64,000 nt of DNA from contig JADJGV010000034.1 of assembly GCA_016707895.1 (NCBI GenBank), positions 693,625 through 757,624 on the forward strand, read 5' to 3'. Within the stretch, counting starts at the first letter, position 1, and each line of letters begins with the position of its first letter. Under the pieces are notes generated by a model that worked only from the letters and a program-made list of their open reading frames with translations, did no database searches and had not been told where the DNA came from. This DNA comes from Myxococcales bacterium (GTDB lineage: Bacteria > Myxococcota_A > Polyangia > Haliangiales > Haliangiaceae). Both the position numbers and the translations under genes were made by a program. Below, one piece after another: positions 3,994 through 59,360 of this stretch.

Positions 3994-4004
3994 TCGTAAC
4001 CTTA

Positions 4005-4062
4005 GAGGGTCTTTCGCAAAGACCCTCGCTGGTTTTTGGAGGGTCTTTCGCAAAGACCCTCC
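4005..4062. terminator. tandem copies of a perfect palindromic hairpin (GAGGGTCTTT-CGC-AAAGACCCTC); first copy plus T5 run is a probable intrinsic terminator
   Basis: Hairpin 1 is at 4005..4027 and is followed by GCTGGTTTTTGG. Hairpin 2 is at 4038..4062 with no T-run. Both lie directly after the stop of the 3598..3993 gene. Confidence 0.4.
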
Positions 4063-4287
4063 CCCACAAGACGTGGGGCCCCCACCCGAAACGCGAGAGC
4101 GCTGCGCGGGCCGGCCACGGCGAGGCTCGGCGGCGTGGCGGTGGCCACCAGGCGGGCCTGTCCGGGAGCGGCCGGATTCCGGCCATCCCGGACACGTTCT
4201 GGCCGGATTTCCGGCCAGCCGGACACCGCAAGTAGCTGAGATCGCGTGGGGTGGGTGGACGGCATCGGCGTTGCTCTACGCGCGCGC

Positions 4288-5358: not shown

Positions 5359-8300
5359 ATGCGCCGTCGCTTGCGCCGCTTGTCTACCTTCATCGGGTTC
5401 GTCGTCGCGCTGGGCCTGACCACCCACGCCCACGCCCAGCCGGTCAAGCCCCGCATCTCGGTGATGGTGGACTCGTCGGGGTCGATGCTGCTGACGCCGG
5501 AGATCGTCACCATCGCCGAGACTTGCGTCGCGCAGGGCTGGAACGGCTGCACGAGCAGCGGCAACCCCACCGCCGCGCAGGAGACCTGCAACGCGTGCAT
5601 GGCCTGGACGACCCGCGTGTCGCCGACCTGCGCGAGCAGCTTCACGGCGACCTGCCGGTCGACCTACACCAACTGCTACCGCTTCTTCTACGGCTCGACC
5701 GCGACCTGCGGCCAGTCGCTGAACCTCTCCGAGGGCGTGCCGACCCGCGGCGACGGCACCGCGCTGACGCCGGGTTGCGACGTCGACGGCGACGGCCAGG
5801 CCAACGACAGCCGCATGTACCAGGCCAAGGAGGCGGTCAACAACGTCGTCGCAACGTTCGGCGAGGTCGAGTTCGCGCTGTGGCGCTACGCCCAGGTCGA
5901 GGGCGGGCAGACCTGCGCCTCCGACGCGTCGTGCCCCGACACCCCCGGCGGCTCCAGCGTCCTCACCTGCGAGAACGTCGCCGGCGCCAACGTCTGCGCG
6001 CTCGACGCCGCCAACATCGGCTCGGCGACCGGCCAGTGCAACATGTTCACCTGGAACGGCGCCGACAACACGTTCGCGTGCTCGCAGTGCAACGACGGCG
6101 GCGGCAGCGCCGAGCGCCTGCTGTGCGAGGCCTACCAGCTCGATCGCATCCGCACCGGCGGGTCGAGCCCGCTGGCCGGCACCGTCAACTGCGCGCTGCC
6201 CAGCACCAACCACCCGTTCATGATGAACCACGGCGGCTGCGATCCCTCGGGCGGCGAGCGCCTGGTCGACTTCCCGGCCACCGGCTTCGACGACAACTAC
6301 GCCCAGATCCGGCAGTGGATCGATCACCAGCAGCCCAACGTCTCGACCGACGTCGAGATCAACGCCCAGGGCGGCACGCCGATCGCCGCGTCGCTGCGCG
6401 ACATGCGCACCGCGGTCTTCAACTCGGCGCGGCTCGACACCCGCACGCCGTGCCGCAAGCACCAGGTCATCTTCCTCACCGACGGCGGCGAGAGCTGCGA
6501 GACCGTCGCGGCGGCGGTGACCGCGGCCGGCACGTTCCAGAACATGTCGTTCACCAACGCGGCCGGCACCGTCGTCCCCGACTACGACGTGCCGGTCTAC
6601 GTCATCGGCTTCGCGGTGTGCCCGCCCGGCCAGCCCAACTGCCAGACCCGCCAGGACCTCAACTCGATCGCCGCCGCCGGCGGCACCGGCACCGCGATCC
6701 TGGTCAACAACCAGCTCGAGCTGCAGCTGGCGCTGGCGCAGATCGTCGCCAACTCGGTGCTGGCCGAGCGCTGCAACAACCTCGACGACGACTGCGACGG
6801 CGCGGTCGACGAGGACTTCCCCGGTCGGGGCGCGGCGTGCTCGGCCGGCGTCGGCGCGTGCTTCGCCAACGGCACGGTCGTCTGCACCGCCGATCAGACC
6901 GGCCTGGCGTGCAACGCCACCGCCGGCGCGCCCAGCCCCGAGGTGTGCAACGGCCTCGACGACAACTGCGACGGCCTGATCGACAACGGCATCAGCTGCA
7001 CCGGCTGCGTGCCGGTGTGCACCGACGCCGCGCACTGCGACGTCTGCAACAACATCGACGAGGACTGCGACGCCGTGATCGACGAGGACTTCGTCGCGAC
7101 CTCGTGCGGCGTCGACACCGGCGCGTGCGCGCCCGGCGCCACGGCGTGCGTCGCCGGCACGCTGTCGTGCACCGGCGGCGTCGGCCCGGTCAGCGAGACC
7201 TGCAACAACGTCGACGACGACTGCGACGCGATCGTCGACGGCATGACCCAGGCCTGCTACCCGCCGGCCACCGCCGGCTGCAACCCGATGACCGGCGTAT
7301 GCCAGGGCGTGTGCCGGCTCGGCACCCAGACCTGCACCACCGGCAGCTTCGGCGCCTGCACCGGCGCGCGCACGCCGGGCCTCGAGATCCCGTGCAACGG
7401 GCTCGACGACGACTGCGACGGCCTGGTCGACGAGGGCGGCGGCGTCGAGCAGTGCAACGGCCTCGACGACAACTGCAACGGCATGGTCGACGAGGGCGTC
7501 GCCACCACCGACCCCGACATCGGCGACGCCTGCGGCACGCCGCCGTTCGTCGGCGCCTGCCGCCAGGGCGCGATCGCCTGCGTCGCCGGCGCCGAGGTGT
7601 GCCAGGGCGAGATCAACCCCACCGGCGAGGTGTGCGACAACGTCGACAACGACTGCGACGGCACCGTCGACGACAGCGTGCCCGGGTTCGGCGGGCCGTG
7701 CGGCTCGAGCGTCGGCCGCTGCGATCCCGGCACGCTGCAGTGCGTGGCCGGCGCGCCGGTGTGCGTCGGCGCGGTCGGCCCGTTCGCGGAGGTGTGCAAC
7801 AGCCAGGACGACAACTGCAACGGCGCGACCGACGAGACCGACCCGATGCTCGGCGACACCTGCGCCACGCTGCCGGGTGGCGGCACCGTGCCCAGCGAGA
7901 CCGGCGAGTGCCAGTTCGGCGTGCTGGCGTGCCAGGCCGGCGGCCTGACCTGCGTCGGCGCGATCGGCCCGGTGGTCGAGCGTTGCAACGCGCTCGACGA
8001 CGACTGCGACGGCCTGGTCGACGAGACCTTCCCGACGCTGGGCACCGCCTGCGACAACGGCGCGCTCGGCGTGTGCCGCCAGACCGGCGTCGTGGTGTGC
8101 TCGCCCAGCGGCGGCACCACCTGCACCGCGCCGCCCGGCGTGCCCGGCACCGAGACCTGCAACGGCCTCGACGACGACTGCGACGGCACCGTCGACGACG
8201 GCCCGCTGCCGCTGGTCGGCACCGAGTGCGCGCCGGCCACCGGCGTGTGCGCGCCCGGCCTGTGGGCCTGCACCGCCGGCGTGCTCACCTGCGGCCAGCC

Positions 8301-50093: not shown

Positions 50094-53288
<3,195 letters not shown>

Positions 53289-53442
53289 GGTGCTTCCGAT
53301 CGTGTGCGGCCCGGCGACTGACCCGGGCCAAGGCGGCGTGTCTTAGCACAGCCAAACACGCGGAAGCTAACCATCCCCGCCGCCACGTCAATCGCCCAAG
53401 GCCAGGAAGTTCGCGGACCTAGCCCGTCGGGCAGGTGACCGA

Positions 53443-54158
53443 GCGTCGTGGGGAGGCTCGATCCCGGCTCCGCCGGGGGCGAGGGGGGCTCGGCGACGAG
53501 CCCCCTGGAACACGGGCGATCACGCCAGGCGGAACGAGCGCGCGAAGGCGATCGAGTCGCCGCGCAGGTCGAAGCGGGTCAGCGCGGTGCCGATGACCAT
53601 GCCGACGCCGTCGCTCAGCTGGCCCGGCAGCTCGGTCCAGGTGCGCAGCGGATCGAGCCAGCGGATGTCCTTCTGGCCGGCGAACGAGTAGGGCAGGCCG
53701 TCGTCGCCCTGGAACTCGAACTGGTAGCGGATGATCCGGCGCAGCCACGGCCGCAGCTCCATGGTGCCCGTGATCGGCCGGGCCCGGGCCAGGCCGTCGG
53801 CGTCGACGGTGCCCTCGATCGCCGCCAGCCGCGACTTGCGGAACTCGAGCAGCGAGCCGGCGCGGGCGGTGACGGTGAACTCGAAGCGGCCGCCGCCGCG
53901 CCCGCCGTCGGTGCGCGCCCAGGTGCCGCGCATGGTCTCTCGGAAGCCGAAGCCAGGCATGGGCACAATGTACCGCAATCCGCGGGCGCGGCTGCGCCGG
54001 CGATTTCCCGTCGGTCGCCGCACTTGGGAATTGACGGCGGCCGTCGCGCGCTTTAGTACGCCCCTCATGGCGCACGCCGCGCGTCACGTTTCCAGGGGGC
54101 TCGTCGCCGAGCCCCCCTCGGTGGGGCCAGGTCCCCGCCGAGCCTCCCCCCACGACGC
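53443..54158. mobile_element. about 716-bp cassette bounded by about 70-bp imperfect inverted repeats (MITE-like / small non-autonomous element candidate) carrying one ORF
   Basis: IR-L is at 53443..53510. IR-R is at 54089..54158. The inner 31 nt are identical in inverted orientation (CGAGGGGGGCTCGGCGACGAGCCCCCTGGAA vs TTCCAGGGGGCTCGTCGCCGAGCCCCCCTCG). The outer 18-20 nt are near-identical (GCGTCGTGGGGAGGCTCG vs CGAGCCTCCCCCCACGACGC). No transposase is present. Confidence 0.4.
53520..53960 (-). CDS. hypothetical protein (146 aa) inside the IR-bounded cassette
   Basis: The internal ATG at 53960 (residue 36 of track ORF 53520..54068) gives MPGFGFRETMRGTWARTDGGRGGGRFEFTVTARAG...IRYQFEFQGDDGLPYSFAGQKDIRWLDP. 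Third-position GC is strong. No family is confidently recognised (possibly a lipocalin/nitrobindin-like beta-barrel). Confidence 0.55.
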   Translation of the reverse strand: MPGFGFRETMRGTWARTDGGRGGGRFEFTVTARAGSLLEFRKSRLAAIEGTVDADGLARARPITGTMELRPWLRRIIRYQFEFQGDDGLPYSFAGQKDIRWLDPLRTWTELPGQLSDGVGMVIGTALTRFDLRGDSIAFARSFRLA

Positions 54159-54219
54159 GAGCCGCCCGCCACGCGCCGATCCGCGCCCGAGGCGCGGTTC
54201 GGCCGCGCACCCGTGGACC

Positions 54220-55611
54220 GTGGCCCCGACGCTAGGGGTGTTCGCTGCCGCGCTGGCTGCCGCGGTGTTCCTCGCCGACGGCGACCTGCGCGCGCTGCGC
54301 GGGCTGCCGACCCGGCGCCCGCCGGCGCCGCCGGCCGCGCCCGCCACCCCGGCCGCCCCCGAGGCGATCGAGGGCGCGCCCGGCGAGGCGGCGCCGCCGC
54401 TGCCGCCCAAGCCCGACCTCGCGCCCGAGCGGGTGGCCGGCGGCCACGCGCCGTCGGTCCCGGGCAAGACCGTCGAGGACACCTGCCTGGCCCCGGCCGG
54501 CGCGACCACCGGCTGCACCCGCTGGGCGCTCGACGACTTCTACGCCGCGCTGGCCGCGACCGAGCAGGGCACCGCGCGGCGGCCGGCGCGGCTGTCGTGG
54601 TACGGCGACTCGGTGTCGGCCACCGACGCGCTGCCCGGGCGCATCCGCGCGCGGCTGCAGGACGTGTTCGGCGACGGCGGCCCCGGCTTCGTCCACGCGG
54701 TCGCGCCGCACCGCTTCAACCACAGCCTGGCGGTCGCGCGCACCGCGTCGGGCTCGTGGCGCTCGTTCGGCGTGTCGTTGGCCAACGTCGGCGATCACCT
54801 CTACGGCCTGGGCAACGCCACCGCCGAGGGCCAGGGCACGATCAAGCTGTCGGCCAAGACCCCGAGCGGCAAGCTGACCTCGGTCGACGTCTACTACCTG
54901 GCCCAGCCCAGCGGCGGCACCGCCGAGCTCGACGTCGACGGCGAGGTCAAGGCGACGATCGACACCAGCGCCGAGAAGAAGACCGCGCGCTTCGAGACGG
55001 TGCGGGTGCCGGACGGCGACCACCAGATCCAGCTGAAGGCCACCGGCAAGGTGCGGCTGTTCGGGTTCGCGCTCGAGCGCGACGCCGGCGTCGTGGTCGA
55101 CAACATGGCGCTGGTGTCGGCCACCGCCAAGAACATGCTGCTCAACCAGGCCGACCACTGGAAGGCGCAGCTGGCCCACCGCGCGCCCGACCTGGTCATG
55201 ATCATGATCGGCACCAACGAGGCGCAGTGGCTGTCGGGCAGCGAGCGCTCGATGGCCGAGTACGAGGAGATCTGGCGGAAGCTGCTGACGCCGGTGCGGG
55301 CGGCGCGGCCCACCGGCGCGTGCCTGGTGGTGTCGCCGCTCGATCAGGCCGAGGCCGACGGCGACGACCTGCGGGCCCGGCGCGGCATGCCGGCGATGGT
55401 CGCGACCCAGCGCAAGGTGGCGTTCGAGCTCGGCTGCGGGTTCTGGGACACGTTCACCTGGATGGGCGGCTCGGGGGCGTCGATCAAGTGGCGCAAGCGC
55501 GGCCTGGTGGGCACCGACTTCGCCCACCTGTCGGGCCGCGGCACGGCGATGGTCGCCGACGGGCTGGCGGACGCGCTGGTCGCGGGCTACAAGGCCTACA
55601 AGGGTCGGTGA
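54220..55611 (+). CDS. SGNH/GDSL-hydrolase-like polysaccharide O-acetyltransferase/esterase (AlgX/AlgJ/PatB-like), membrane-anchored
   Basis: Tail of track ORF 53731..55611. The GTG at 54220 (VAPTLGVFAAALAAAVFLA is a signal anchor) is preferred over the ATG at 54067, because 54067..54158 is the right inverted repeat. Block I is WYGDSVSA, block III is IMIGTNEA, and block V is DFAHLS (DxxH). Confidence 0.65.
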   Translation: MAPTLGVFAAALAAAVFLADGDLRALRGLPTRRPPAPPAAPATPAAPEAIEGAPGEAAPPLPPKPDLAPERVAGGHAPSVPGKTVEDTCLAPAGATTGCTRWALDDFYAALAATEQGTARRPARLSWYGDSVSATDALPGRIRARLQDVFGDGGPGFVHAVAPHRFNHSLAVARTASGSWRSFGVSLANVGDHLYGLGNATAEGQGTIKLSAKTPSGKLTSVDVYYLAQPSGGTAELDVDGEVKATIDTSAEKKTARFETVRVPDGDHQIQLKATGKVRLFGFALERDAGVVVDNMALVSATAKNMLLNQADHWKAQLAHRAPDLVMIMIGTNEAQWLSGSERSMAEYEEIWRKLLTPVRAARPTGACLVVSPLDQAEADGDDLRARRGMPAMVATQRKVAFELGCGFWDTFTWMGGSGASIKWRKRGLVGTDFAHLSGRGTAMVADGLADALVAGYKAYKGR

Positions 55612-57011
55612 TCGCTCCGCGCTTCATAGCCGCGCTGTTCGCGCTCGGCGCCTGCAGCAGCACGTCGTCGGACGCGATGCCGCGCAGCCCGTCGACCGCC
55701 GAGGCCGCGCCGCCGCCCGCGCTGACCGACGCCGGCGTCGACGACGCGCCGCCCGACGCCGCCGCGATCCTGCCGGTCTTGACCGCGCCGGCCGGGGCCC
55801 TCGACGGGTTCCACGCCGCGCTCGATCGCGCCGCGGCCAAGGATCCCGGCGGCCGCGCGCTGGTGCTGGTGTTCGGCGACTCGCACACCGCCGGCGATCA
55901 GCTGACCGGCACGCTGCGCCGCGAGCTGGGCAAGCACTTCGGCCAGGGCGGGCGCGGGTTCGTGCTGCCGGGCAAGCCGGCGATCCGCCACTACTACCTG
56001 CGCGACGTGGCCTACGGCTCGAGCGGCAAGTGGCAGGCCGAGCTGGGCGGCAAGCGCGACAACCTCGAGCCGTTCGGGCTGGCCGGCGTGCGCAGCCACA
56101 CCGCGGACAAGAAGGCCACCGCGTGGGTCGCGACCTGCGGCAGCTGCCCGGTCGACAAGGTCGCGCGCTTCGACATCTTCCACCTGCGGACCAAGGCCTC
56201 GGGGGCGTTCAGCTACCAGGTCGACGACGGCGCGTGGATCAAGGTCGCGACCAAGCTGCCGGCCAGCGCCGCCGAGGCCCAGCTGCCGGCGGTGACCTCG
56301 GTCGACGTGCCCGACGGCCGCCACAAGCTGGCGCTCAAGCCGGCCGGCGGCGGCCCGATCGAGCTGTTCGGCGTGGCGCTCGAGCGCACCACGCCCGGCG
56401 TGGTGGTCGACGCGCTCGGCGTGGTCGGCCGCCGCCTGACCCACCTGCGATCGTGGGACTGGTCGGTCATCGGGCCCCAGGTGTCGGCGCGGGCGCCGGC
56501 GCTGGTGATCCTGCAGTACGGCACCAACGAGGCCGACGACCCGAAGCTCGACCTGGCGGCGCTGGCCGCCGCCTACGACGAGGTGATCGCCGACGTCCGG
56601 GCCGCCGCGCCCGGCGCGTCGATCTTGATCCTGGGGCCGCCCGACATGGGCGAGCGCGACGCCGGGGCCGCCTGCGACAAGCTGCGGCCGCCGCCCGACG
56701 CCGACGCCGGCGTGCCGTACGAGTGCCAGTGGCACACCCCCGGGGTGCTGCCGCTGGTGATCGACGTGCAGCGCCAGGCCGCCGCGCGCAACCAGGTCGC
56801 GTTCTTCGACACGTTCGCCGCCATGGGAGGCGGCAACCTGATGGACACGTTCTTCCACGCCGATCCACCGCTGGCGTACTCCGACCACATCCACTTCACG
56901 CAGGCCGGCTACGAGCAGTGGGGGCGCGCGCTCGGCGCGGCGCTGCTCGACGATCACGCCCGCTGGACCCAGACCGACCCGACCGCGCGCTCCTCCGGCC
57001 ACCGGCCGTAG
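55608..57011 (+). CDS. second SGNH/GDSL-like lipoprotein (AlgX/AlgJ-like)
   Basis: The GTG at 55608 overlaps the upstream stop (GTGA), in the frame of track ORF 54213..57011. The lipobox is FALGACSS. Block I is VFGDSHTAGD, block III is LQYGTNEAD, and block V is YSDHIHF. Confidence 0.7.
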   Translation: MIAPRFIAALFALGACSSTSSDAMPRSPSTAEAAPPPALTDAGVDDAPPDAAAILPVLTAPAGALDGFHAALDRAAAKDPGGRALVLVFGDSHTAGDQLTGTLRRELGKHFGQGGRGFVLPGKPAIRHYYLRDVAYGSSGKWQAELGGKRDNLEPFGLAGVRSHTADKKATAWVATCGSCPVDKVARFDIFHLRTKASGAFSYQVDDGAWIKVATKLPASAAEAQLPAVTSVDVPDGRHKLALKPAGGGPIELFGVALERTTPGVVVDALGVVGRRLTHLRSWDWSVIGPQVSARAPALVILQYGTNEADDPKLDLAALAAAYDEVIADVRAAAPGASILILGPPDMGERDAGAACDKLRPPPDADAGVPYECQWHTPGVLPLVIDVQRQAAARNQVAFFDTFAAMGGGNLMDTFFHADPPLAYSDHIHFTQAGYEQWGRALGAALLDDHARWTQTDPTARSSGHRP

Positions 57012-57014
57012 GCC

Positions 57015-59360
57015 ATGCTCTTCTCGAGCCCGCAATACCCGCTGTTCCTGGCAGCGGTGTTCTTCCTGTACGGCCTGGCGCGCACCGGGCGGTGGCCGGC
57101 GTCGATCGCGCGCGTCGCGCTGATGCTGCTCCTGGCCGACGTGGTCTACGTGCTGCTCACCCACGACGTGGGCACGCTGTGGGATCCGGTCGGCGGCACG
57201 GTGCTGGCGTGGATCACCGACTCGCCGGCGCCGTCGGCGTGGCGCTGGCCGCTGGGGCTGATCGTGGTCGGCGGCGCGTTCCGGCTCGGGCACGACCTGG
57301 CCGGCCGCCACCGGGCGGTACCGACCACCGTCGCGCCCGTGGCCCCGGCCCGGGCCGCGGCGCCGCGGGCGGTCGCGCGCAAGAAGGGCAAGGGCAAGAA
57401 GCAGGGCAAGCGCGGGCCGTCGCCGCGGCCGGTCGCGCCGACCACCGTCGCGGTCACCGGCGATCCGATCGCCGCCGAGCGGGTCAGCGCGTGGACCGGG
57501 CACGCGCTGGCCGGCGCGCTGGTCGCGCTCGGGCTGATCGTGCTGATCGGCGGCCGCACCGGCACGCTGCCGGCGTTCACCAGCGCGTTCGCCCACGTCG
57601 GCCACCTGATCTACCTGTGCGGCGTCGGCTTCGCGCTCGGCGCGGCGCAGACCGAGCGCGGCCGGCACCTGGGCCGGGTGCTGATCCTCGGCCTGGTCAG
57701 CGCGGTCTTCTACCACGCGTGGGCCGCGGGCCAGCACGGCGCCTACCAGTACCTGCTGGCGCTGATCGCCGCGACGATCGTCCTCGACTTCTACCTGGCG
57801 CGCGCGATCGAGGCCAGCGAGCGCCACGGCGTGCGGCTGACGCTGCTGATCGTCTCGCTGGTGTCGAACCTCGGCATCCTCGCGGTGTTCAAGTACGCCG
57901 ACTTCCTGCGGCTCGACGTGCTGCACACCGGCGGCGCGCCGTGGAAGCTGATCCTGCCGGCCGGCATCTCGTTCCACACCTTCCAGTCGCTGAGCTACAC
58001 CGTCGACGTCTACCGCCGCGAGATCCGCGCGACCCGCTCGGTGATCGAGCTGGCGACGTTCGTGCTGTTCTTCCCGCAGCTGGTGGCCGGCCCGATCGTC
58101 CGCGCCACCGAGCTGTTGCCGCAGCTGCGCGACCTGCCGCTGTTCGATCACGGCCGCGCCGCCGACGGGCTGTTCCGGATCGTCGTCGGGCTGGCCAAGA
58201 AGATCGCGATCGCCGACTTCCTCGGCGACGCGCTGGCCGATCGGGTGTTCGCCCACCCCGAGCTGTACTCGTCGGCGGAGGTCGGCGCCGGCGTGGTCGC
58301 CTACGCGTTCCAGATCTACCTGGACTTCTCGGCGTACTCCGACATCGCGATCGGCTCGGCGCAGCTCCTGGGCTTCACGCTGCCCGAGAACTTCCGCACG
58401 CCGTACCGCTCGGCGTCGCTGCAGGAGTTCTGGCGGCGCTGGCACATCTCGCTGTCGTCGTGGCTGCGCGACTACCTGTACATCCCGCTGGGCGGCAACC
58501 GGGGCGGCGAGCTGACCACCTACCGCAACCTGATCCTGACGATGCTGCTGGGCGGGCTGTGGCACGGCGCCAGCTGGACGTTCATCGTCTGGGGCCTGCT
58601 GCACGGCGGCGGGCTGGCGGTGACGCGCATCTACCAGCGCGCCGCGCGGCGCGGGCGGGTGCTGGCGATCGCGGCCGCGGCGTTCGGGCTCGGCGTCGGC
58701 GTCGAGCTGCTCGGGCTGGCGCCGAGCCGGCCGTGGGCGCACCTGGCGTTCGCGTGGGCGTTCACGGTGCCGCTGTGGGCGGCGTTGACCGCGATCCTCG
58801 AGGGGCTGCCAGCGCCGACGATCGTCGGCCGGCCGCGGCCCGCGCTGGCGCTGTGGCTGCGGCTGGCCGCGGCCGCGCAGGTCGGGGTCGCGCTGGCGGC
58901 GCTGCAGTGGGGGCCGAGCGCGCTGGTCATCCCGCTGATCATCCTGATCGCGGCGCTGACCTGGGCCGCCGACGCCGCCGAGGTCGGGCCGACCGTCGAC
59001 GCGGCGCTGCGCTGGCTCGGGTGGGCCGCGGCGCGGGGCGCGGCGGTGGTGCTGGTGTTCGCCTACGTGTGCCTGGCGTGGATCTTCTTCCGCGCCCAGA
59101 GCTTCGCGCAGGCGCTGGCGGTGCTGCGCCGGCTGGGCGCGCACGAGTACGATCACCCCAACCTGATCCGCGTCGTCTTGACGGCGCTGGTGGCGGCGCT
59201 GGTCGCGCACTGGTTCGCGCCGCGGACGTTCGCCGAGCTGCGCCGGCGGTTCGTCGCCGCGCACCCGATCGTCCAGGGCCTGGCGCTGGCGGCGGCGGCG
59301 CTGGTGCTACGCGAGCTGGCCCACCCCAAGATCGTGCCGTTCATCTACTTCCAGTTCTGA
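57015..59360 (+). CDS. MBOAT-family membrane-bound O-acyltransferase (AlgI/DltB/PatA-like) with N- and C-terminal extensions (781 aa)
   Basis: Track ORF. The MBOAT core is FHTFQSLSYTVDVYRREIRATRSVIELATFVLFFPQLVAGPIVRATELLPQL and WRRWHISLSSWLRDYLYIPLGGNRGG (with the conserved His). A Lys-rich insert RKKGKGKKQGKRGP is present. The start is 3 nt after the SGNH-2 stop. Confidence 0.85.
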   Translation: MLFSSPQYPLFLAAVFFLYGLARTGRWPASIARVALMLLLADVVYVLLTHDVGTLWDPVGGTVLAWITDSPAPSAWRWPLGLIVVGGAFRLGHDLAGRHRAVPTTVAPVAPARAAAPRAVARKKGKGKKQGKRGPSPRPVAPTTVAVTGDPIAAERVSAWTGHALAGALVALGLIVLIGGRTGTLPAFTSAFAHVGHLIYLCGVGFALGAAQTERGRHLGRVLILGLVSAVFYHAWAAGQHGAYQYLLALIAATIVLDFYLARAIEASERHGVRLTLLIVSLVSNLGILAVFKYADFLRLDVLHTGGAPWKLILPAGISFHTFQSLSYTVDVYRREIRATRSVIELATFVLFFPQLVAGPIVRATELLPQLRDLPLFDHGRAADGLFRIVVGLAKKIAIADFLGDALADRVFAHPELYSSAEVGAGVVAYAFQIYLDFSAYSDIAIGSAQLLGFTLPENFRTPYRSASLQEFWRRWHISLSSWLRDYLYIPLGGNRGGELTTYRNLILTMLLGGLWHGASWTFIVWGLLHGGGLAVTRIYQRAARRGRVLAIAAAAFGLGVGVELLGLAPSRPWAHLAFAWAFTVPLWAALTAILEGLPAPTIVGRPRPALALWLRLAAAAQVGVALAALQWGPSALVIPLIILIAALTWAADAAEVGPTVDAALRWLGWAAARGAAVVLVFAYVCLAWIFFRAQSFAQALAVLRRLGAHEYDHPNLIRVVLTALVAALVAHWFAPRTFAELRRRFVAAHPIVQGLALAAAALVLRELAHPKIVPFIYFQF

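Follow-up and report, generated by a model that had tools for sequence, protein, structure and literature searches.

Two copies of a miniature inverted-repeat transposable element (MITE) bracket a gene, with no transposase present, in MITE-bounded units such as the integron mobilization units and the MITE-flanked integrons of Enterobacter and Acinetobacter. Bacterial MITEs can also give rise to stable stem-loop transcripts, and some form in-frame fusions with open reading frames (ORFs), including one signal peptide that is formed in part by a MITE (Delihas 2008, PMC2229807); most of the known families are rich in A+T, end in TA, and have clear terminal inverted repeats (PMC2229807). Here, we analyze a 64,000-nucleotide (nt) stretch of the genome of a Myxococcales bacterium (GenBank assembly GCA_016707895.1, contig JADJGV010000034.1, positions 693,625 to 757,624 of the forward strand; hereafter, the window), in which two inverted copies of a G+C-rich repeat, the left and right arms, flank a gene for a 146-amino-acid (aa) protein. 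The gene order of this neighborhood is secA, the 146-aa ORF, two SGNH/GDSL genes, and an MBOAT gene. An earlier note on this DNA, made from its letters without database searches, took the arms for the ends of a MITE-like cassette with the gene as its cargo or, alternatively, for a very long-range stem. We find that the arms are probably independent insertions of one small, nonautonomous mobile family and that neither is the end of a cassette. The MITE-like character proposed earlier thus survives for each arm singly (copies are dispersed, relatives have both sites empty, and a 3-bp target-site duplication flanks the right arm) and is lost for a cassette with a cargo gene.

The arms have in common 31 nt, CGAGGGGGGCTCGGCGACGAGCCCCCTGGAA, that form a perfect inverted repeat (53480-53510 and 54090-54120, located with a repeat finder; the pair lies 579 nt apart), confirming the identical core of the earlier note, whose coordinates for the right-hand copy (54089-54119) were one base off. 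Matches to this core at up to three mismatches number exactly two in the window, versus 0.00 expected (100 shuffles), and each core is itself a 9-bp hairpin, GGGGGCTCG-GCGA-CGAGCCCCC, with GCGA as its loop. Farther out, both arms contain the block GCGTCGTGGGG(GG)AGGCTCG, at 53443-53460 (plus strand) and 54139-54158 (minus strand), in which the two extra G residues are the sole difference between the arms, in agreement with its description as near-identical. The 18 to 19 nt between outer block and core are unlike in the two arms, and the arm-to-arm alignment has 56 of 77 columns identical overall. The right-hand end at 54158 was set too short, as the right element reaches 54207; the statement that no transposase is encoded between the arms is correct. 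Folded as single strands, the arms each give the predicted hairpins, two or three in number (z from -3 to -5.4); the 5′ module of the right arm carries a hairpin of its own, and the three-hairpin fold of this arm has z scores of -3.0 and -5.4. The features of the two arms are as follows:

53445 to 53512, plus strand: left arm, a 68-nt short form with a type-A middle hairpin (nhmmer profile E 2e-15; absent at the orthologous site)
53457 to 53483, plus strand: middle hairpin of the left arm, CTCG-ATCCCGGC-TCC-GCCGGGGG-CGAG (predicted fold; family stem variants)
53484 to 53505, plus strand: terminal hairpin of the left arm, GGGGGCTCG-GCGA-CGAGCCCCC (repeat finder; predicted fold)
54085 to 54087: first copy of the target-site duplication, CAC on the plus strand and GTG in the orientation of the element (alignment A2)
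54088 to 54207, minus strand: right arm, a full-length 120-nt long form with a type-B2 middle hairpin (alignment A2 of filled and empty sites; BLAST breaks)
54095 to 54116, minus strand: terminal hairpin of the right arm (repeat finder; predicted fold)
54117 to 54142, minus strand: middle hairpin of the right arm, on the plus strand CTCG-GTGGGG-CCAGGT-CCCCGC-CGAG (fold; stem types)
54208 to 54210: second copy of the target-site duplication, CAC (alignment A2)

Evidence for insertion comes from eight related loci (L001 to L008). In BLAST comparisons with the window, L007, L008, and L001 to L003 are collinear, with high-scoring segment pairs that break at 54087|54204; for L007 and L008, there is also a left-side break at 53437|53520. 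Alignment A2 shows the right site as GCGCGT-CAC-(120 nt)-CAC-CCGTGG in the window, against empty sites of GCGCGT-CAC-CCCTGG in L002 and GCGCGT-CAA-CCCTGG in L007 and L008: the right arm is a 120-nt insertion with a perfect 3-bp target-site duplication, CAC. At the left site (alignment A3; empty in L007, L008, and L002), about 68 nt are inserted 7 nt past the TGA of the 146-aa gene, leaving the C terminus of its product unaltered, with the hairpin end of the arm facing the gene. Neither profile search nor alignment detects the repeat anywhere in the eight related loci. Because the arms differ both in the type of their middle hairpin (A versus B) and in their form (short versus long), they appear to be of separate origin.

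The same comparisons bear on the composite cassette, in which the inverted copies would be the ends of one unit carrying the 146-aa gene. Two inverted copies around one gene, with no transposase and with both outward ends being 5′ ends of the element, are what such a unit would look like, but all eight related loci hold the gene upstream of secA and none has the repeats. Moreover, the right copy has a CAC duplication of its own, the arms belong to different subtypes, and the triplets outside the whole arm-gene-arm pair differ (AGC at 53442-53444 versus CAC at 54208-54210), leaving no duplication that the pair could share. We consider a cassette barely credible.

The repeat is dispersed well beyond this locus. 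Scanning 185,579 species-representative genomes for the pattern GGGGGCTCGKCGMCGAGCCCCC returned 32 loci, 19 of which (20 copies on 17 contigs) lie in a single genome, Myxococcales bacterium MAG-81; the remaining matches, from Nocardia, Kribbella, Streptomyces, and Fimbriiglobus, consist of the bare hairpin only. The MAG-81 copies share the entire unit with the window arms at 86 to 95% identity, and their flanks are unrelated apart from a repeat of a sister family, which places the window in a different genome. A 27-mer scan of metagenome contigs yielded 52 further copies, spread over 51 contigs and at least eight assemblies, one of which also contains the empty-site relative L007. The additional copies that the earlier note had proposed looking for hence exist by the dozen in a related genome and in metagenome contigs; within the window, a profile search finds two copies of the family and no third. 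Small size, many copies, target duplication, and presence/absence polymorphism are all found together, and by these sequence-based characters the family would count as a bacterial MITE-like family.

This dispersal, together with the empty sites, also speaks to the notion of a locus-specific long-range stem, or of an inversion of the 579-bp segment, which spans the 146-aa gene and the divergent promoter region and extends through SGNH codon 7. A perfect inverted identity of 31 bp is long enough, in principle, for homologous recombination. Each arm, however, is missing from close relatives, and about 70 other loci have the sequence as a single copy; the arms sit on divergent transcription units, such that no normal transcript spans both; and there is neither an adjacent recombinase gene nor an inverted allele among the relatives. 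We give next to no weight to either version.

Members of the family are 68 to 120 nt long and about 75 to 80% G+C and have no ORF of their own. The short form (about 68 to 78 nt) begins GTCSYGGGGGG and comprises a G-run/GGCTCG motif, a variable middle hairpin, and the terminal hairpin, followed by TGGAACT. The long form, of 120 nt, has an extra 5′ module with a third hairpin; its consensus is AGCCTGTGAGTCTTTCGGTCGAGCACCGGTCGACGCGYCGGGAGTCTCGCGTCGCGGGGGGAGGCTCG - middle hairpin - CGAGGGGGGCTCGGCGACGAGCCCCCTGGAACT, and the other full-length copies measure 113 + 7 = 120 nt. A deletion form (L033:7898-7937) has the first GGCTCG motif joined to the last. The termini, AGCCTG... and ...CAGGAACT, form imperfect inverted repeats of 6 to 11 nt (the ends of the short form were also compared as GTCCTGGGGGGAGGCTCG versus GTTCCAGGGGGCTCG). 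Middle hairpins are of type A (ATCCCGGC-TTN-GCCGGGAT), type B1 (GCGGGG-GCATGA-CCCCGC), or type B2 (GCGGGG-ACCTGG-CCCCGC), with other stems represented by ACGGGG..CCCCGT, TCGGGG..CCCCGA, and ACCTTGGC..GCCGAGGT; several of the differences are compensatory double changes. Since stems vary by such double changes and by whole-stem swaps, the middle stem is conserved and its sequence is not. Stems were analyzed directly (in alignment A5, MAFFT offsets the stems of types A and B by one column), and the stem mismatches (6 G-T versus 4 A-C) are uninformative as to which strand folds.

A sister family is represented in the window at 3996-4110 (minus strand), where the layout of the main family recurs with different stems: CTCTCGCGTTTCGGG and a G-run come first, then the middle hairpin, and last the terminal hairpin, GGAGGGTCTTTG-CGAA-AGACCCTCC; this copy has an extra partial hairpin at about 4007-4026. 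Copies that are 94 to 98% identical to it occur in L013, L046, and L057, with more distant ones in L021 and L055. In L021, two copies of the sister family stand in tandem, ending in TCAG at the stop of a gene.

Flanking sequences suggest a preferred target. Among 17 long-form copies with a readable left end, 11 are flanked CAG...CAG, one is flanked CGG...CGG, and four differ at one base; the flanking triplets are identical in 12 of 17 full-length copies. The left CAG is mostly preceded by CT, and tandem copies share a single TCAG. The usual target, CTCAG, corresponds to C-TGA-G on the strand of the gene. Three copies set the length of the duplication at 3 nt: the right arm of the window (GTG...GTG, with a single GTG in the empty site), L085, and L033. 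A TNA-type register, [TCA]G...[TCA]G, as in some members of the IS5 group, was tried and rejected, with the right copy of the window, L085, and L033 fitting only CAG/GTG.

These flanks are also where a different kind of mobility has to be weighed, namely, that the family is related to repetitive extragenic palindromic (REP) sequences and REPINs or derives from IS200/IS605 (PATE-like), with an HUH/Y1 transposase, hairpin recognition, and insertion beside TCAG, rather than being a DDE-type MITE. A cleavage-site model of this type is consistent with the single TCAG shared by tandem copies and with the recurrence of this tetranucleotide at left flank and right end. The architecture also speaks for this reading: the elements are dominated by hairpins, their terminal inverted repeats are vestigial, the middle stem is kept through compensatory changes and whole-stem swaps, the sister family has the same layout with different stems, and copies lie in fixed orientation just 3′ of genes, as many REPs do. 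Yet the GTG...GTG around the right copy, with its single GTG in the empty site, is a true duplication and not a fixed element end, and L085 and L033 fit the 3-nt CAG register, not one of 4 nt. There is no GTAG-type signature, and no RAYT/TnpA gene turned up, albeit without a genome-wide scan. The copies are also not the single imperfect palindromes of 20 to 40 nt, with a conserved 5′ tetranucleotide and no duplication, by which REPs and REPINs are recognized. On balance, we regard an origin of this kind as unlikely, albeit a serious competitor given the dominance of hairpins and the poor terminal repeats, and retain insertion as a MITE.

Most copies stand in a fixed relation to genes. We counted ORFs of at least 60 codons, with G+C at third codon positions (GC3) of at least 0.85, that read toward the hairpin end, and used random positions in the same sequences for comparison. 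Of 71 sequence-distinct copies, 36 have such an ORF ending exactly 6 nt from the hairpin (versus 0.125% of random positions), and 48 have one ending within 16 nt of it (versus 2.0%). The left arm in the window fits this pattern loosely, with a stop 14 nt from its hairpin and the same orientation. The inversion of the two arms would follow from the same rule: in each arm, the hairpin end points to a gene whose reading direction leads toward it, and these two genes are divergent.

A relation this regular (51% of copies flush with a stop, 68% within 16 nt, always in the same orientation) could also mean that the repeats are a host-selected 3′-end module, whose hairpins terminate transcription, protect mRNA ends, or modulate ribosome release; this would be compatible with mobility. 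The predicted hairpins are very stable, and in E. coli, REPs located up to about 15 nt from a stop reportedly lower expression of the upstream gene through ribosome stalling. On the other side of the ledger, the hairpins are followed by C/G-rich sequence and not by a U-tract, copies are absent from orthologous sites in close relatives and so are dispensable there, some copies lie inside coding regions, and the stem mismatches (6 versus 4) reveal no strand bias. An intrinsic terminator was considered specifically and rejected, given the missing U-tract and the lack of any terminator-like site in a scan of 53200-54400. A host-selected module is a possible but doubtful account of the pattern. Comparison with Rfam gave no relevant match at E values up to 5 (52800-54800) and none at gathering score across the window. 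One copy with a non-stop-codon target (L066:1049-1126, plus strand) sits in the loop of an A/T-rich, terminator-stem-like hairpin (CCCCCGAAAAAAAT / element / ATTTTCGGG).

The right arm lies within a coding region, that of the first SGNH/GDSL gene. This gene is called from the same ATG (window 54067) in five relatives, and the 29 nt before and 18 nt after the ATG are almost invariant among relatives (alignment A2). The N terminus of the protein is MAHAARQPWTVAPTLGVF in relatives (MAHAAR..PWTVAPTLGVF) and MAHAAR-H-VSRGLVAEPPSVGPGPRRASPHDASRPPRADPRPRRGSAA-H-PWTVAPTLGVF in the window: after codon 7, there is an insertion of 120 + 3 = 123 nt, or 41 codons, that is in frame and free of stops, with codons 8 to 47 supplied by the element (encoding a peptide that includes HVSRGLVAEPPS...) and codon 48 by the second copy of the duplication. 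Most likely, judging from this alignment, translation still starts at the ATG, and 41 residues rich in Arg and Pro lengthen the N-terminal tail of the protein; the insert falls within the positively charged part that precedes a hydrophobic membrane anchor. The earlier note rightly traced the extra N-terminal residues to the repeat, the 41 codons being element plus duplication, but its choice of GTG 54220 as the start finds no support, and no sequence feature calls for this less probable start: the conservation of ATG 54067 in five relatives and the exactly in-frame insertion favor the ATG, with the insert probably read through. Because a sigma-70 promoter scan of 53200-54400 returned no site, the sole pointer to a promoter just upstream of this ATG is sequence conservation.

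Other copies lie within genes as well. The 120-nt consensus contains no stop in any of the three gene-sense frames, and at two other loci (each in two samples), the element is situated inside a long, high-GC3 ORF in the same frame (..SRGLVAEPPSIPA.PGSSLPPRRET..; ..SRGLVAEPPS..), with SSRGLVAEPPSIPAKPGSSLPPRRET... as the element-encoded peptide. In L014:5893-7356 (plus strand) and the orthologous L065, a short-form element occurs in frame in an AlaX/AlaRS-editing-like protein. The alignment of this protein with its solved homologues 3wqy and 3kew covers residues 2-57 and 89-407, skipping the element-encoded segment, and the two structures have 2 to 4 residues where the L014/L065 protein has about 31 to 37. 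A long ORF in L022:933-5822 (minus strand) and the orthologous L064 also contains an in-frame element (..VVWGVKL-NSRGLVAEPPSIPAEPGSSLPPRRETGRGPAL-SWELYVYDPGG..). For L022, the estimated net insertion of 101 nt is not divisible by three, although a single frame with a GC3 of 0.98 continues on both sides.

Such copies admit a more specific proposal: a stop-codon-targeting, frame-neutral element whose enzyme would recognize CTGAG at translation stops, whose mistargeted copies would survive within genes as 41-residue inserts thanks to a 120 + 3 nt build without stops in any of the three frames, and whose stop-flush copies would be co-opted throughout a myxobacterial lineage as modulators of 3′ ends or of ribosome release. 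We consider this proposal improbable as a whole; if it were true, stop-codon targeting would be a new mode of target choice, and the family would be more than another MITE.

Our preferred account, independent insertion of a mobile element, runs as follows. A family that encodes nothing would have to be moved in trans by a separate enzyme, most likely by cut-and-paste with a DDE-type transposase making a 3-bp staggered cut. A preference for CTCAG would leave most copies flush with a TGA stop, with the terminal hairpin 6 nt after it, and purifying selection would presumably leave mainly insertions at stop codons and in frame. After the split from the lineage of L007 and L008, a short copy was inserted 7 nt downstream of the 146-aa stop codon, and a full-length copy at a GTG/CAC seven codons into the divergent SGNH gene, duplicating CAC. 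Inverted copies beside divergent genes mimic terminal inverted repeats. The left copy equips the 3′ untranslated region of the 146-aa gene with two strong G+C hairpins, which lie upstream of the secA promoter region and may affect read-through or mRNA stability.

Several points weigh against this account. The left arm has no recognizable clean target duplication (alignment A3), and the ends of the element match only as a short, imperfect inverted repeat (long form, AGCCTG versus AGTTCCAG; short form, GTCCTGGGGGG versus GTTCCAGGGGG). About 525 kb of collected loci contain no transposase or autonomous partner, for which reason we infer, and do not observe, the mobilizing enzyme and its assignment to the DDE type; a hunt through these loci for an autonomous partner or orphan ends turned up one rearranged fragment (L046:8207-8246). 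In addition, the copy count for the window's own organism covers 64 kb only, the copies were gathered by exact match to the terminal hairpin, making the apparent invariance of that hairpin an artifact of collection, and the 71 copies include loci that recur in different samples, such that the counts are not fully independent, although the excess of copies at stops is very large.

The genes around the arms are as follows:

50094 to 53288, minus strand: secA, the downstream neighbor of the 146-aa gene (Pfam SecA domains)
53520 to 53960, minus strand: the 146-aa gene (homologues, synteny, and structure model)
54067 to 55611, plus strand: first SGNH/GDSL gene, with the ancestral ATG at 54067 (Pfam PF13472; start as called in five relatives)
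55608 to 57011, plus strand: second SGNH/GDSL gene (Pfam)
57015 to 59360, plus strand: MBOAT gene (Pfam)

Because relatives keep this gene order but lack both arms, the 146-aa gene is, on comparative grounds, a resident neighbor of secA, conserved in this position across Kofleriaceae-like genomes, that is neither cargo nor part of any mobile unit. Five related contigs (L001 to L003, L007, and L008) retain the order SGNH <- / -> 146-aa -> secA without either arm, and L002 has both divergent SGNH genes, as in the window. The 146-aa gene is directly upstream of secA in L001 to L003, L006, L007, and L008 and apparently so in L005 (where the downstream ORF is cut); in L004, four genes lie between the two. 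An SGNH gene directly beside secA without the 146-aa gene, which would be the empty state of a cassette, is seen in no relative among the eight loci. The earlier note judged this gene to be well coded, and it is genuine: there are 43 homologues, most of them 142 to 149 aa, with start, length, and C terminus conserved. Some homologues are labeled Kofleriaceae, and the most distant, from Pendulispora, is 38% identical; identity to the window protein is 94% in L007 and L008, 79% in L001 to L003, 68% in L005, and 63% in L006. Sequence searches of Pfam, NCBIfam, and the PDB with the protein gave no match, and a look-up of the exact protein sequence returned no record. In an AlphaFold2 model (pLDDT 82), the protein forms a small all-beta barrel whose structural matches to generic or designed beta-barrels and to nitrobindin are weak (TM about 0.4 to 0.5), and the product is accordingly predicted to be a small beta-barrel. 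Between this gene and secA, a conserved block, GGTCCGCGAACTTCC..., constitutes the secA leader/promoter block; all relatives have it, and the left arm of the window is situated upstream.

Three further observations concern these genes. In L006 (from the Kofleriaceae metagenome-assembled genome GCA_041389965.1), four tandem units of ~37 nt (CCACTGCCAGTAGCCTCGCCGACGGCGGCTGGCGA) occur at about 5770-5900, just upstream of the homologue of the 146-aa gene, and bear no relation to the dispersed element of the window. Within the secA coding region, on the opposite strand, ARAGORN reports a tRNA-Ser(TGA) at 52521-52607 (plus strand), almost certainly a false positive. Finally, the tandem SGNH/GDSL and MBOAT genes (54067-59360, plus strand) resemble, to judge from their Pfam domains, polysaccharide O-acetylation operons of the AlgX/AlgJ/AlgI type.

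For annotation, the consequence is that the presumed cassette is not a mobile unit and that the long SGNH N terminus is a repeat-derived insertion behind an ancestral start. More generally, repeats of this kind lead gene callers astray in high-GC genomes, give the false impression of inverted-repeat cassettes, and can alter the 3′ ends and N termini of real genes. Two of their traits are unusual, namely, the fixed 6-nt spacing at which half of the copies abut a stop and the preservation of the frame by copies inside genes. The repeats could serve in strain typing and in the study of target choice by mobile elements in myxobacteria. A BLAST search of the 120-nt consensus against plasmids and phages produced no match, a search of the literature on myxobacterial MITEs and REPs or on the core sequence found no description of the family, and, along with its sister family in Kofleriaceae-like myxobacteria, it appears to be undescribed.

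Set beside known systems, the family overlaps with several. It differs from MITE-bounded units in that the bracketed gene is resident and syntenic, the copies were inserted separately, and there is no duplication around the pair. Like REP, BIME, and REPIN sequences with their RAYT transposases (Nunvar et al. 2010, PMC2817692), it consists of G+C-rich hairpins just downstream of genes, in tandem or mosaic arrangement, with conserved stems; unlike them, it has a verified 3-bp duplication and two to three hairpins over 68 to 120 nt and lacks a GTAG-type head. With Correia/NEMIS, ERIC/IRU, RUP, and YPAL elements, it has in common a length of 70 to 200 nt, a lack of coding capacity, many copies, target duplication, and presence/absence polymorphism, although its G+C content of 75 to 80%, imperfect ends of 6 to 11 nt, 3-bp CAG duplication, and position flush with TGA stops set it apart from those MITEs. 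The entry in frame into conserved genes (the SGNH N terminus, the AlaX-like protein, and a third ORF) recalls the Rickettsia palindromic elements, to which the family is unrelated in lineage and sequence; here, in contrast, most copies are extragenic and stop-associated, and frame neutrality comes from 120 + 3 nt.

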